Source: Escherichia coli (GTDB lineage Bacteria > Pseudomonadota > Gammaproteobacteria > Enterobacterales > Enterobacteriaceae). From it: a stretch of 64,000 nt of DNA. The position numbers were made by a program, and so were the translations under genes. Position 1 is the stretch's first letter; the number at the start of each line of letters is the position of its first letter. Below the pieces are notes generated by a model. It saw only the letters and a program-made list of their open reading frames with translations. It ran no database searches and was not told the origin of the DNA. Below are positions 49,528-62,084 of this stretch, one piece after another. The stretch lies in the NCBI RefSeq assembly GCF_011045215.1, contig NZ_CP049201.1. The stretch is one strand, 5' to 3'.

Positions 49528-49603
<76 letters not shown>

Positions 49604-49656
49604 GTTTAAAAGGCATCGGCGTCAGCGGATGTCTGGCTGAAAGGCCTGAAGAATTT

Positions 49657-49730
49657 GGCGCGTTAACAAAGCGGTTATGTAGCGGATTGCAAATCCGTCT
49701 AGTCCGGTTCGACTCCGGAACGCGCCTCCA
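49657..49730 (+). tRNA. cysT: tRNA-Cys (anticodon GCA)
   Basis: GGCGCGTTAACAAAGCGG...GATTGCAAATCC...CGCGCCTCCA. Confidence 0.92.
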
Positions 49731-49742
49731 CTTTCTTCCCGA

Positions 49743-49829
49743 GCCCGGATGGTGGAATCGGTAGACACAAGGGATTTAAAATCCCTCGGCGTTCGCGCTG
49801 TGCGGGTTCAAGTCCCGCTCCGGGTACCA
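49743..49829 (+). tRNA. leuZ: tRNA-Leu (anticodon TAA), long variable arm
   Basis: GCCCGGATGGTGGAATCGGTAGACACAAGGGATTTAAAATCCC...CCGGGTACCA. Confidence 0.92.
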
Positions 49830-49865
49830 TGGGAAAGATAAGAATAAAATCAAAGCAATAAGCAG

Positions 49866-49897
49866 TGTCGTGAAACCACCTTCGGGTGGTTTTTTTG
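49866..49897 (+). terminator. Rho-independent terminator of the tRNA operon
   Basis: aaaccaccttcgggtggttttttt. Confidence 0.7.
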
Positions 49898-49998
49898 TAT
49901 TTGTATTTTGAGCAATGGCGGTAGAGTGGCGGTGGTGTGGCGATATGCAGAAACAACAATGGTAGTGCACGTGCTGTTTAAGCTCTAAGGATGAAGCA

Positions 49999-50190
49999 GA
50001 ATTCTCCTGCAGCTCCTCCGTATTTCGCATAGTGAACCAAGACTTCGGTTAAACAAAATTTTTCTGGGATTTTTCCACTCGACTTCATTTTTCCTCCAGT
50101 CATCCACCAAAGGTACCTGCGCTAATCTATCTTTTTTAATCTGACAACATCCTGAGAAAAGGCAAATTCGTCAGATTTACTGTTTTTTCT
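49999..50190 (-). repeat. Degenerate hok/sok-like element lacking the hok ORF (paralogous to 50860-51230)
   Basis: Direct, ~70-75% similar blocks (ctccgtatttcgcatagtgaacc / cttcggttaaaca / ccaaaggtacctgcgctaatctatc / aggcaaattcgtcagatt) shared with the hok locus flanks; the ~120 bp carrying the hok CDS is absent. Confidence 0.55.
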
Positions 50191-50370
50191 ACTGCTTCGA
50201 ATGCCGATGTCTGCAGTACTGATAAGAGCTCTATCTCTTTGATATAGATCTTTTATTTGATGAATTGCTCGACATATTATCGTTATGACACCTTCTTGTT
50301 AAAGGTGTTGTACTCCACATCTCGATTTTATGATGTGGGTTATGATTGGTTAGTAATAGAGTGTATCGGT

Positions 50371-50652
50371 ATGCGATGTGGTTTATTAATGGCAATCTGC
50401 TTTTGTTTGGTATCTTTTAGTGGGTATGCAGCAACAGGAAAGTCTGATGTTCAGATCAAGAAAGAAATAATTAAAGAATCCATTGAATCATATCCAGGCA
50501 ATTGTGCGTGTCCTTATAATCATGCAAGGAATGGTAGTAGGTGTGGTGGACGCAGTGCATATAGCCGTACTGGAGGGTATGATGTGGTATGTTATGAGAG
50601 TGATGTTACTGATGAAATGATCCGGCAATGGAAGCAGGAGAATGCTGATTAA
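50371..50652 (+). CDS. Hypothetical small secreted Cys-rich protein
   Basis: ORF 50257..50652; likely start at ATG 50371 (MRCGLLMAICFCLVSFSGYAA signal-like N-terminus), ~70-aa mature part with four Cys; AT-rich; strong terminator downstream; family not recognised. Confidence 0.5.
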   Translation: MRCGLLMAICFCLVSFSGYAATGKSDVQIKKEIIKESIESYPGNCACPYNHARNGSRCGGRSAYSRTGGYDVVCYESDVTDEMIRQWKQENAD

Positions 50653-50730
50653 TTACTTTTGACTGGTTTGTTTTGCGAGCATTATGTGTGTTGTTAACGG
50701 TACCCTAGCTAAGTGAGAGTTCCAAAATAA

Positions 50731-50762
50731 AACCCGCAGTTTTTACGCTGCGGGTTTTATTG
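50731..50762 (+). terminator. Rho-independent terminator
   Basis: aaaacccgcagtttttacgctgcgggttttattgttt. Confidence 0.75.
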
Positions 50763-50843
50763 TTTCTGTCGATGGGATAGGGTGCCACTTCGGCCAGCCT
50801 TGGCAACCGATTGACGGGGGATTACTCCCCCGTCGCGGTTTCC

Positions 50844-50984
50844 TTACTGCTTACACTGTAAGAACGCCGCAAACTCCGCTCCCCAGAAGCTCATCCGTAT
50901 TTCACACAGCGAACCGTGCAGCATCCAGATGATGAGGATTACCGTCACGCAGAACGTGATGGCCGTAAGCGATTTTTGCGACAT
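50844..50984 (-). CDS. hok: Hok/Gef-family type I toxin (46 aa), below the ORF-track length cutoff
   Basis: Minus-strand translation MSQKSLTAITFCVTVILIIWMLHGSLCEIRMSFWGAEFAAFLQCKQ: single TM helix plus the Hok signature SLCEIR and AAFL tail (HokA-like). Confidence 0.8.
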   Translation of the reverse strand: MSQKSLTAITFCVTVILIIWMLHGSLCEIRMSFWGAEFAAFLQCKQ

Positions 50985-51165
50985 AGCGCTTGCTCCTTTT
51001 TAGGGGAGGCGCTAACCTATCACTTGCTAAGGTTAGATGGTTAGGGCCTCGGTTAAACAGGGATGTTTTCCGGGGCCTTTCCACATCTGGCCTTCGGGCA
51101 TACCCTCCGACCATCAGCCGAAAGGCACCCGCGCGTAATCTATCGTTTTTTTGTTGCTTCGGCAA
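50902..51165 (-). other. mok-like overlapping reading frame / hok mRNA leader; sok antisense RNA expected on + strand within ~51040-51120
   Basis: 87-codon frame overlapping the hok start in another frame, the arrangement of mok in hok/sok loci; sok position inferred, not demonstrated. Confidence 0.45.
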
Positions 51166-51174
51166 TTCTGCTCG

Positions 51175-51435
51175 TTAATTCTGAGGTAAAGGCAAACTCA
51201 TCTGATTGTTTCCCCTGTGTGACGTTGGCAGTTCATGCCACGGGATACCTTCTGAAGATCGAACGCCTGAGGTGTGTTTCGATGTGAATTTATGGAAAGC
51301 TTCCAGTGTTGAGAAGCATACGCCGCATTCCAGGTTGTTACACTGGTAATACTTTTGTCGGACGGTGTTTGAATCATTTTCCGGACGACTTGTGCGGATA
51401 CGGGCAGATGCGCCACAAAGCGGACAACGGAACAT
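51175..51435 (-). CDS. ogr: Ogr/Delta-family zinc-finger late transcription activator
   Basis: MFRCPLCG...ARIRTSR...YYQCNNLECG Cys4 pattern typical of P2 Ogr; AGGGAGG RBS. Confidence 0.85.
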   Translation of the reverse strand: MFRCPLCGASARIRTSRPENDSNTVRQKYYQCNNLECGVCFSTLEAFHKFTSKHTSGVRSSEGIPWHELPTSHRGNNQMSLPLPQN

Positions 51436-51654: not shown

Positions 51655-53077
51655 GTGAGAGGAGATTATCAATTGAAGATGGCAAAAAATAACAATGATA
51701 AAATGCGGGCAAAGTATAGGCCGTTCATAAATATATGGGAACATCTTCCTTCTGAGTTCAATGAACTCATCAAGACGTTAATGGTGCTGATACGGCAAGG
51801 GGAAAATGTGGGAGCTCAGCAAAGGGAGCTTGATTCCATCGAAAACTTCAAACACCTGTTAAGTGGATGGAAGCGGGCGCAAAGGATCATAGCTGATGAA
51901 CTCATTATCAGGCTTTCTCAAATCAAGGATCTGGAGTTAGAAAAGAATTGTGCCCATTCAAAAAAGGACTATGAAACAAAGAAGAAGTGTATACGCAATA
52001 TTGAAAGGACTAGACTAGAAATTAGGATTTTACGTAGGTGCATTGATTCAATTGTATGGGCGATATTCCGCAATGAACACTCGTCTATAAGACGTTTACC
52101 TATAAATAGAAATACTGACAATCTGACAATATTTAATATACATGATTCAATGGTGGTAGCAGATGAAATCAATGCTGATCCGATGGCTATAGCTGTTATC
52201 ACTGATATTACTACGTTTGTACATACTGGTGATTTACTTGCGTTAATACCTCAGCAAGGCATAACTTTAATTGAAATAAAAAGTGGTAAGAAAAATATAG
52301 AGTTTTCAAAGGCGGCTATGTTCTCAGTGCAAAGTAAATGTCTTCATTTTGATGAGATTTATAGAAAAGACCTTGATAAAAATGACTTGAAACACTATGA
52401 CAGAGCTAAGCGTCAACTTAAAAGAGCTCAAAATGTGATAGATGTCATTGAGACTGGTAAGGGATTTGATAACTTTTTTCAGTCTCAAGTAACAATTCAT
52501 GACAGAGATTTTTGTCCCGATTTTTATACAGATAAGATTATTGAGCTTTGGTATGAGATATATAACGGTAAAACTTGGGCGATTACTGACATTAATGATT
52601 GTTTATTCCTTGGGGCATATATTAATTCTAATATGGGTTTTTGCGGTTTTAATGGATGGATGGAGGTATCTAGAATATCGGGGAGAGTGGTTTAATATTC
52701 TTGATAGCTTTTCAGATGCTTTATCACGTCCATTTTTTAGTTTGAACCTACCTGATAAATTGCTTCTGGATATCATTAATGGCAATCTAATTGTTGTGCT
52801 GTGTTTCGATCATCGTCGTTTCGTAGAAAGAGCAAATAAAAAATACCCCGGGATTTATGAGTTATTGGATTTTCCATCTCCGAAGATTAATCCTATGAGT
52901 ATGCTTTCCATCAATGGGAAGGGGGTAGTTTCTAGTGTTGATGGACAGAGTGTTTTTATTGGAAATGGTTACGAAACTCGGATTATTTTTGATCAGCAAT
53001 ATCCAGATAGTCTGATTAAGTGGTCATACCATATGAGTGATCTCAAAAAAATATTGATAAAAAAAAGCGTAAAATGA
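51655..53077 (+). pseudogene. AT-rich prophage cargo gene of unknown family, apparently frameshifted (~470 aa if merged); PD-(D/E)xK-like motif
   Basis: ORFs 51655..52695 (frame 1) and 52499..53077 (frame 2) overlap; both have protein-like sequence outside the overlap; frame switch needed near the G-run at 52678-52690; motif VITDI...TGDLLAL...LIEIKSGKK. Confidence 0.55.
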
Positions 53078-53272: not shown

Positions 53273-54382
53273 TCACTCTGTTTCTGCTATCCATTCCGGG
53301 ATTTTTGCTTCAAGCTCAAGCTGCGTGGTAAAGCCGCTGTTATCAATGGTGTGCTCGGCTTTTGCAATAATCCAGTCCTGATTATCAATCTCGCTTTTAA
53401 ATCCTGTTACCGTGCCATGCATTTCGGGGTAGAGTTCTGCGCGTCCGCGTGCCAGTGTGATGGAGAATGATGCGGCTCCGCGTTGTAGTTGTTGCCACTT
53501 TGCCGCCGCTGCGCGTCTTGCTGCCTGCTCGTTCTGATAAGTCTTGCGTAACACAAACACATTGCCTTCCGCGCCTTCCATATAATCACCTTCACGGCTG
53601 CTGCTTTTCTCTTTTTTCGGTTTTGGCGGTTTGCGGCGTTTCACGCTGACTTTTTTCTTTTTCCCGTAATTAAGATCAAGCCAGTAAGCGCGTACCCCCG
53701 TATACGCCTCGCGGTCAGCAATGCGGAACTGATGGCGATCGCCGCTGCTGCGTGTGATGGCGAACGAGGGCAACGGCTGGCCCTGTGCGTTCACGCCACC
53801 GCCGGGCATGATGAATAACAGATTACCGCTTTTTACCGTGGTGATTGCGCCCAGCATTTCCGCCATGCGCGTAAGGAAGGACATGTCACTTTCTTCGGTC
53901 TGGTCGGCGTGGTCGATTTCGATATCCATCAGCATTTCGCTGATTTGCGGTTTCAGACCGTACCGATGAGCGATGGCGGATACCACACGCTCAACGGTCA
54001 CATCATGCCAGGACATCTCACGTTTAACGTTAAATTCATCCCGAAAATCTGCGCTTCTGGCTGAAACAGTCAGCCTGTCCGGCGGTCCTTCGTGTGCGAT
54101 TTCATCAACAATGTAAGAGCCTTTTTCTGTCAGCGGTTCGCCTTTCCAGCCAATGAGAACCGTCAGGCGCGCGCCCCGTGGCGGTAGCCGCAACTGACCA
54201 TCCGCATCATCCAGCGTGATGGTGAGCTGGTCTGCCTCAAATCCCCGGTTGTCGGTCAGCGACAGGCTCATCAGGCGCTCTGCCACGCCGGACAGCGTTT
54301 TACCCTCCGCGAGAATATCAAAATCCGGCATTTTTACGGGGTCTGTGCCCTGACTGAGCAATTGCATGGTGGTGTCGGTCAT
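53273..54382 (-). CDS. P2 gpD-like tail protein (late control gene D homolog)
   Basis: Start at ATG 54382 (MTDTTMQLLSQ...) with GGGAGGG RBS; 369 aa; gpD-like. Confidence 0.8.
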   Translation of the reverse strand: MTDTTMQLLSQGTDPVKMPDFDILAEGKTLSGVAERLMSLSLTDNRGFEADQLTITLDDADGQLRLPPRGARLTVLIGWKGEPLTEKGSYIVDEIAHEGPPDRLTVSARSADFRDEFNVKREMSWHDVTVERVVSAIAHRYGLKPQISEMLMDIEIDHADQTEESDMSFLTRMAEMLGAITTVKSGNLLFIMPGGGVNAQGQPLPSFAITRSSGDRHQFRIADREAYTGVRAYWLDLNYGKKKKVSVKRRKPPKPKKEKSSSREGDYMEGAEGNVFVLRKTYQNEQAARRAAAAKWQQLQRGAASFSITLARGRAELYPEMHGTVTGFKSEIDNQDWIIAKAEHTIDNSGFTTQLELEAKIPEWIAETE

Positions 54383-61484: not shown

Positions 61485-62084
61485 TTATGCTTGTTTACTC
61501 CTTGATTCCACTGGGGAAGCAGGCCACTCAATATCCGGTGCTCTTGATGTATCAACACGGTTCAGCAGCACTCGATACTTCTTCCATGCCACCAGTAACG
61601 ATGTTTCTTCCTCTGTTGCAATATTCAAATCTACGGCATCTTGAAGTGGCGAAATATGCTCACTGGCTACCTGCATGAGGCTGTTTTTTGTTTCTTCCGC
61701 CTCCCGTATCCGGAACACTTTTTCTGCTTCTGCATCTTTCACCCACGTTGTGCCGTTCCACTTCTGAAACTCCCCTTCCGGGGATAACCAGGTGACATTT
61801 TCCGGTAATGGACCGAGTTCAGAAATAAATAACGCGCCCCCTGATGCCACGTCATAAACCGTTTTACCACGATGATCTTCAACGAGATGCCAGGACGTCT
61901 TATCACTGTTGAAAATAGCCACGAAGCCAGCTGGAATATCTGGCGGAGAAATATCAGTACTATTTGCAGGTAGACCTGTATGAGGTGGAATGTATGCATC
62001 ACCTTCACCAATAAATTCATTGGTTCCGACCAGCAGATTATAAATTTTTATGGTTCGTGGTTGTTCACTCATTCTGAATGCCAT
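61485..62084 (-). CDS. Tail fibre assembly protein (P2 gpG/Tfa-like)
   Basis: 199 aa; start overlaps stop of tail fibre gene. Confidence 0.85.

Follow-up and report, generated by a model that had tools for sequence, protein, structure and literature searches.

A probable HokW-type hok/sok relic at the ogr/att end of a P2-like prophage downstream of leuZ in Escherichia coli

Results

The leuZ junction and the adjoining prophage end

The window analysed is a 64,000-nt stretch of an E. coli chromosome (NZ_CP049201.1), which contains rseX, dsrA and the glyW-cysT-leuZ tRNA operon (49528-49826); the features of its prophage end are listed in Table 1. The sequence was that of K-12 MG1655 through ...GGTGGTTTTTTTGT (~49898) and divergent beyond, and the prophage/host junction was therefore set at ~49898/49899, where the K-12 homology stops. 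Inward from the junction the order is the relic studied here (49985-50190, sense on the minus strand), a hypothetical ORF with a signal peptide, hok, ogr, a pair of ORFs without a family, and gpD with the tail genes, which begin at 53273 in the ORF map. The presence of ogr/Delta, gpD and tail genes beside the att junction identifies the segment as a P2-like (Peduoviridae) prophage, seen here at its right end.

Table 1. Features of the leuZ-proximal prophage end (window coordinates)
Feature	Position	Strand	Basis or remarks
3'ETS-leuZ and terminator (host)	49827-49898	+	MG1655 annotation, terminator scan
Direct repeats TGGCGGT / TGGCGGT / TGGCGAT, exact 11-bp spacing	49916-49944		Read from the sequence
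C-terminal hok codon relic (GSLCEIR...), equivalent to ~hok 50858-50915	49985-50038	-	Alignments
Deletion junction, 127 nt missing (hok 50916-51042)	50038-50039	-	Alignments
hok 5' leader relic	50039-50131	-	Alignments; BLAST match to the hokW leader in Stx phages
Block matching the last ~7 ogr codons (51188-51207)	50157-50177	-	Alignments, 17/20 identical
Signal-peptide, Cys-rich hypothetical ORF, 93 aa (moron)	50371-50652	+	ORF list; RefSeq 'hypothetical protein'
Stem-loop terminator, hypothetical ORF/hok interval	50726-50761		Scan reads + strand; also 3' of the hok mRNA on -
Intact HokW-type hok mRNA gene	50770-51130	-	361-nt mRNA
hok ORF, 46-aa product	50844-50984	-	Pfam HOK_GEF 30.1 bits (cut-off 22)
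Predicted Sok promoter and Sok RNA	50990-51092	+	Boxes conserved in P88 and L079
Predicted hok promoter TTGCCG-17-TAGATT	51137-51165	-	Permissive scan; 6 nt upstream of the mRNA 5' end
ogr (P2 late-gene activator), right prophage end	51175-51435	-	Pfam Ogr_Delta 52.5 bits

In RefSeq, the near-identical region of strain S1 is annotated as hypothetical protein, Hok-Gef and ogr, that of ETEC-2264 as ogr followed by 'phage late control D', tail sheath and tail tube, and the same three annotations occur in O157. In O157:H7, hok and ogr have been removed by IS30 and the relic is retained. Because Sp13 is the sole P2-like prophage of O157 Sakai (Asadulghani et al., PMC2669165), the O157 copy is presumed to lie at the Sp13 end.

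The relic occupies the stretch ~90-290 bp into the prophage, counted from the host junction at the ogr/att end. The TGGCGGT-type repeats lie outside it, 18-46 nt inside the prophage; repeats 1 and 3 were invariant in the three allele groups described below and the middle one is TGGCGAT in O157 and ETEC-2264. These repeats are candidate integrase arm-type sites of a P2-like phage that integrates at the leuZ terminator.

The hypothetical ORF matched phrog_27544 (for which no function is known) and was without a Pfam family in the profile search. It has its own terminator and recurs beside hokW-type loci in P2-like prophages at the att sites leuZ and copA; with homologs at 55-74% in other phage contigs, it is a widespread moron. 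Between ogr and gpD, two overlapping ORFs (346 and 192 aa; 51655-53077, + strand) had no Pfam, PHROG or PADLOC matches. A fragment of this region is annotated 'restriction endonuclease' in strain S1, and the pair is possibly a defence-type moron, either frameshifted or novel. At 61543-61741 (- strand), Rfam IS009 was matched with 187.7 bits inside an ORF of the prophage tail-gene region, and this 'sRNA' family appears to be P2-like prophage coding sequence.

An intact HokW-type locus beside ogr

The product of the hok ORF scored above the Pfam cut-off for the Hok/Gef toxins (Table 1) and matched phrog_251 ('MokW-like host killing'). The hok mRNA, whose 5' end was taken as the start of the Rfam model match (51130), was predicted to fold at -157 kcal/mol (z -5.8 relative to shuffles) with its 5' and 3' ends closed: in the predicted fold the 5' segment GGGUGCCUUUCGGCU pairs with the 3' segment GGCCGAAGUGGCACCC in a 15-bp, tac/fbi-like closure, the architecture described for the hok mRNA (PMC9841398). 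The predicted Sok promoter consists of TTGCTC (50990-50995) and TAACCT (51013-51018) with a spacing of 17. The predicted Sok RNA (~51025-51092, ~65 nt) has a single-stranded 5' tail followed by a GGGCCUCGG...CCGGGGCC hairpin; it folds at -35.2 kcal/mol (z -5.5) and has the same architecture as SokB and SokC. The annotated 5' ends of K-12 SokB, SokC and SokE lie 44-49 nt upstream of the hok AUG, in agreement with the predicted Sok. In the intact copy, the assignments of the Sok promoter and of both RNA start sites (Sok and hok) are thus putative, made by homology and position.

The Rfam sok model (RF01794) matched 50996-51130 (- strand) with 40.7 bits, below its gathering score of 59, so that phage hokW-type loci of this kind escape Rfam at the curated threshold. 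RF01794 is modelled on the hok-sense leader and not on the antisense RNA.

The DNA of the locus was 93% identical to that of phage P88 (over hok-ogr) and other Peduoviridae, and 81.5% identical to the hokW locus of Stx2 phages; hok lies beside ogr likewise in P88 and Gemsvirus. Judged by its homologies and predicted RNAs, the neighbour of the relic is a bona fide HokW-type hok/sok locus.

A second, incomplete copy in direct orientation

Alignment of 49985-50195 with 50850-51215 (MAFFT and a gapped aligner) gave a single collinear, same-strand alignment in which 139/211 relic positions were identical to the hok locus. The main gap was of 127 nt, hok coordinates 50916-51042 being absent between relic positions 50038 and 50039; smaller gaps were of 4, 2, 16, 1 and 27 nt. 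The two copies are ~690 nt apart, with an offset of ~0.9-1.0 kb. The local alignment score was 49, as against 18.2 ± 2.1 (maximum 27) for 200 shuffles and 18.9 ± 2.6 (maximum 28) for ~300 random window segments, that is, more than 11 sd above either background. Default BLAST joined the relic and its neighbour through one 36-nt piece only. BLAST of either copy found no further copy of relic or hok in the whole window, and the similarity is therefore not that of a dispersed repeat family. The initial annotation had described a second copy of the element in direct orientation, on the strength of four sequence blocks, and had the two copies bracket a small secreted-protein ORF. All four blocks were present where they had been placed, the direct orientation held, and the 93-aa signal-peptide ORF does lie between the copies.

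Collinear homology across leader and coding parts, z scores of 12-22 against four HokW-type loci (see below) and the kept GSLCEIR codons place the relic in the hok/sok family by descent. The last ~20 hok codons persist at its distal end, where GSLCEIR is readable and the codons downstream are frameshifted by the 4-nt gap; the ORF at 49985..50110(-) ends ...GSLCEIRRSCRRILLHP. The 127-nt gap comprises 58 nt of leader followed by the start codon (hok ATG at 50984) and the first 23 codons, with the whole membrane/TM helix. The lost part of the leader holds the hok SD, the predicted Sok promoter (50990-51018) and the first ~15 nt of Sok; given where the K-12 SokB, SokC and SokE RNAs start relative to the hok AUG, the equivalent of the Sok 5' end falls in the gap. 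On the other side of the junction the relic keeps what is left of the Sok-hairpin region (50039-50085), which corresponds to the 3' two-thirds of Sok and has decayed, the tac-like mRNA 5' end (AGGTACCTTTGG) and the hok -10 box (TAGATT, 50129->50124), the -35 box being lost in a gap.

The earlier account, in which ~120 bp carrying the toxin ORF were missing and only leader/sok-like and 3' sequences remained, thus needs redrawing in two respects. A large gap and the loss of coding ability are evident, but the missing stretch takes in leader as well and spares the last ~20 codons; leader and Sok 3' hairpin region are indeed kept, but the supposed 3' part consists of those C-terminal codons. A clear counterpart of the true hok 3' UTR (fbi, terminator) was not found in the alignments.

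Assignment of the ogr-like block (50157-50177) to the relic is ambiguous, because a copA-site prophage without the relic (L005) shares homology with the window from ~50165 onward, that is, from inside this block, where the hypothetical-ORF module starts. Upstream of the block, no Ogr similarity beyond the last ~7 codons was found at the protein level.

Features of a working hok/sok locus are absent from the relic

None of the testable defining features of a working hok/sok locus was found in the relic. The Hok/Gef toxin ORF (PF01848) lacks its SD, ATG and first 23 codons and is frameshifted in the rest; the equivalent of the Sok promoter and the Sok 5' tail fall in the deleted 127 nt; the hok promoter is without its -35 box and the mRNA without a structure signal; and the overlapping mok frame survives as a remnant (…PRKILFNRSL) fused to the hok frame. 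This fusion, created by the deletion, is a 41-aa junction ORF in the window allele, without a Pfam family and broken by a 1-nt indel in the O157 allele.

The sense strand of the relic folded with z -0.38, compared with -5.8 for the intact hok mRNA. A tac/fbi-like pairing of 50110-50124 with 49915-49945, seen in the MFE fold, was rejected as indistinguishable from chance at this z. The Sok-hairpin remnant folded at -6.2 kcal/mol (z +0.95), and 165/200 shuffles folded as well.

A strict promoter scan returned nothing on the relic; since neither promoter of the intact locus was detected by it, a permissive scan served as control. At a threshold of at least 8/12 matches, the permissive scan, which recovers P_hok in the intact copy, found no sense-strand promoter in the relic. 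It gave one weak + strand match (CTGACA-16-CAAATT, 50141-50168), and no + strand promoter was found upstream of the Sok-hairpin remnant in the scans. Rfam searches at gathering and permissive thresholds gave no match on the relic, the sok model being found only on the intact copy.

With the Sok promoter gone and the hairpin remnant folding no better than shuffles, a Sok-like antisense RNA is not expected from the relic. The relic may still be transcribed on either strand, for example by read-through from the leuZ operon, which is very active, or from the weak match at 50141-50168.

Relatives of the relic

The relic aligned with z = 12-22 to HokW-type loci, namely its window neighbour and those of phage P88, a second E. 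coli prophage (CP131) and the Stx phages (hokW). It showed no relationship to K-12 hokA, hokB, hokC, hokE or sokX (z ~0-2), and BLAST of the relic region against 50,697 phage records found hokW-locus leaders only. In the leader, the relic was 64.6% identical to its neighbour, 68.8% to P88 and CP131 and 64.6% to Stx-phage hokW, whereas these HokW-type loci were 80-96% identical to one another; by score, the relic aligned better with P88 than with its own neighbour. Since it is about equally distant from all HokW-type loci, the relic is most plausibly what remains of a separate hokW-type lineage, and not a recent duplicate of the locus next to it.

What similarity remains is concentrated on functional elements: the -10 box and the start of the mRNA, the leader, the stem of the Sok hairpin and the GSLCEIR codons. 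This distribution suggests that the ancestor had accumulated most of its divergence as an independent, working locus before it suffered the deletion.

In the copA-site prophage L005, the hypothetical-ORF module immediately abuts P2-type arm repeats (GTCCACAT x2), and the relic is absent. As the homology of L005 to the window begins within the ogr-like block, this arrangement suggests that a module of hypothetical ORF, hok and ogr was recombined into a leuZ-integrating phage that already owned an ogr-hok end. A second att core between the relic and the hypothetical ORF, which would be a sign of tandem prophages, was not found in the window.

Distribution and divergence of the alleles

The relic was matched in ~645/5426 complete E. 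coli genomes (~12%), including O157:H7, in three allele groups of 99%, ~92% and ~86% identity. Among the 40 matches listed of the 645, all but two partial ones were single pieces of 328-331 nt. RefSeq annotates nothing under any match.

The same deletion junction was found in O157, in ETEC-2264, in the 40 E. coli matches listed, in 26 IMG/VR contigs and in a Citrobacter MAG. The latter was the sole match in a scan for a relic-specific 21-mer of the GTDB representatives (one genome per species), an exact-pattern scan of a kind that can miss diverged copies. An intact ancestral copy, which the initial annotation had suggested looking for in other strains, was absent from all three sets: none of the 40 listed E. 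coli matches, none of the 26 IMG/VR orthologs and none of the GTDB representatives carried an intact ortholog. As the junction is shared across allele groups, IMG/VR contigs and the Citrobacter MAG, the deletion is old.

Between the window and ETEC-2264, the intact hok ORF was 100% identical (141/141), the hypothetical ORF 96.1%, ogr 95.8% and the hok leader 90.5%. The relic as a whole was 86.8% identical, with indels, and its coding remnant (49985-50038), at 80%, was the most divergent segment. Positions of the relic identical to hok varied among alleles about as often as the others (15.8% vs 19.4%; Fisher p = 0.56), so that the blocks quoted in the initial annotation are not being maintained now. 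The evolution of the relic shows no sign of constraint and fits a pseudogene.

The hok ORF (50844-50984) was identical at 141/141 positions to L003 4912-5052, in a prophage allele whose leader, ogr and hypothetical ORF differ by 4-10%; this reflects either an unusually strong conservation of the toxin CDS or recent exchange. In E. coli EC7 (NZ_CP060963.1; L004 4001-8155), an IS1 interrupts the relic after ~155 nt and brings a tet(B)/tetR/tetC resistance module directly beside leuZ.

Discussion

A probable pseudogene with a history of its own

The relic is, very probably, a non-functional HokW-type hok/sok pseudogene at the ogr/att end of a P2-like prophage downstream of leuZ. Its ancestor would have been a separate, functional hokW-type locus beside ogr, as in P88-like phages. 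Mosaic recombination between P2-like phages may then have added a second module of hypothetical ORF, hok and ogr, giving tandem hok loci, and the older locus would have been silenced by one deletion that removed antitoxin promoter and toxin translation start together. Loss of Sok expression alone was shown to be lethal for R1 hok (PMC9841398), and the same may have applied to the ancestor of the relic, had the Sok promoter been lost on its own. What is left would be an inert scar that is inherited with the prophage end and, in O157:H7, outlives the intact hok. One point counts against this reading: the same relic length and junction are kept across alleles that differ by up to 14%, and 200 useless bp might have been expected to vanish sooner from a size-limited phage genome.

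In the initial annotation the element was a degenerate paralog. Its direct orientation and the loss of toxin coding bear this out, but the leader distances do not make it a decayed duplicate of the adjacent copy. That it is nevertheless a recent tandem duplicate of the neighbouring hok, which decayed fast once inactivated, is unlikely; such a duplicate would be functionless as well, and only the origin would differ. Direct orientation and close spacing are what a tandem duplication would give, the block in common with the 3' end of ogr fits a local event, and pseudogenes outpace functional copies, which possibly inflates the distance. Against this, the relic leader is no closer to the neighbour than to hokW, and further from it than from P88 and CP131; the alignment score is higher with P88; and similarity concentrated on functional elements is the pattern expected from divergence while both copies worked, these blocks not being protected within the relic lineage itself.

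A more elaborate history, of addiction-module replacement, is quite improbable. A P2-like phage would have acquired, by mosaic recombination, a second hok/sok that did not cross-react, the resident one could then be lost only by one deletion across both the Sok promoter and the hok translation start, and the scars were perhaps drawn into att-arm spacing or moron regulation. If this were true, the relic and the orphan-sok copy of phage contig L079 would mark the ogr-att corner of P2-like phages as a hotspot of hok/sok turnover.

Co-option of the relic as an attachment-site arm, in which it would persist as spacing or a platform for integrase, IHF or Cox, is very unlikely. At 90-290 bp from the host/prophage junction it lies within the reach of P2-type attP arms, its junction is unchanged in all allele groups, and O157:H7 has kept it though the intact hok is gone. 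However, its alleles are separated by indels and by more divergence than the flanking arm shows, a poor fit with phased protein-binding sites; the sole obvious phased repeats (49916-49944) are outside it; a scan found no IHF consensus in it; and the copA-site prophage has its arm-type repeats beside the hypothetical-ORF module and no relic.

The idea that a Sok-like antisense or decoy RNA is still made and cross-talks with the neighbouring hok/sok is extremely doubtful; the initial annotation had asked whether an antisense sok-like RNA is still produced. Some 45 nt homologous to the 3' part of Sok persist, orphan Sok genes exist (K-12 sokX and the partial copy of L079), and read-through from leuZ would run in the Sok direction. 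But the Sok promoter and 5' recognition tail lie inside the deletion, the hairpin remnant is matched by most shuffles, identity to the neighbour's Sok region is only ~65-70%, and the Sok-homologous positions are without selective constraint. Chromosomal Sok RNAs, moreover, failed to inhibit R1 hok (PMC9841398), and in O157:H7 the relic persists with no neighbouring hok to regulate.

Finally, that the similarity is due to chance, or that both blocks stem from an unrelated dispersed repeat, has next to no probability: single blocks are short (13-26 nt) and default BLAST connects the copies poorly, but the collinear score, the z of 12-22 against independent hokW-type loci, the Hok motif GSLCEIR preserved in frame and a window without other copies refute this reading.

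The preferred reading thus remains that of a separate hokW-type lineage disarmed by deletion. The element is an unannotated pseudogene relic, an ordinary scar and not a working element, and it leaves the current understanding of hok/sok biology unchanged. No description of a hok relic at leuZ or in Sp13 turned up in a literature search. The value of the element lies first in annotation: in ~12% of complete E. coli genomes, a hok pseudogene stands unannotated beside leuZ, and readers of sequence alone or hok/sok scanners could take it for an orphan antitoxin or a second TA locus. The element also illustrates cleanly how a type I TA system is disarmed in nature in one step, antitoxin promoter and toxin start going together, and is a data point for the ogr-att corner of P2-like phages as a place where hok loci and morons gather by mosaic exchange.

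Comparison with known hok/sok loci

The relic's only significant relatives are hokW-sokW of the Stx2 prophage Sp5, which experiments have shown to be a type I TA system (PMC8621323), and the 'MokW-like host killing' loci beside ogr, compared here in the P2-like phages P88/Xuanwuvirus and Gemsvirus 500465-2. It shares with the hokW-type loci the blocks of the leader, the -10 box together with the start of the mRNA and the codons for GSLCEIR, and like the hok copies of P2 phages it lies between ogr-type sequence and the att site. Unlike them, it is without Sok promoter, toxin start, TM helix, -35 box and fold-back structure, and it is ~30-35% diverged from all hokW-type loci compared.

Hok/sok loci that no longer work are also found in K-12, and hokA, hokC, hokE and sokX are of the same kind as the relic in this respect. 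In the K-12 annotations, IS elements abut hokA, hokC and hokE (IS150/IS186), and sokX is an RNA gene without a hok. The K-12 loci are reportedly inactive through IS insertion, point mutation or rearrangement, as Pedersen and Gerdes are said to have described in 1999. The relic has no detectable sequence relationship to them (z ~0-2) and differs in how it was inactivated, by an internal deletion of antitoxin promoter and toxin start and not by IS insertion; unlike the K-12 loci, it is borne on a prophage and unannotated in RefSeq.

A parallel in setting is the IMG/VR phage contig L079 (IMGVR_UViG_2757320577_000005), in which positions 1-1460 hold a homolog of the hypothetical ORF followed by three hok-type loci. 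The first (289-~520) is 'sok-only', with a Sok promoter (TTGCTC-17-TATCCT), an intact Sok hairpin and a hok promoter, its hok ORF being cut directly after the ATG; the second is a full HokW-type locus (662-802), and a third Hok gene lies within 1150-1452. L079 thus shares the neighbourhood of the relic, with the hypothetical-ORF homolog and hokW-type loci, and has an extra incomplete copy as well, so that incomplete hok copies recur at this corner of P2-like phages. Its partial copy is the mirror image of the relic, in that the Sok promoter is kept there and lost here, and is plausibly an orphan antitoxin.
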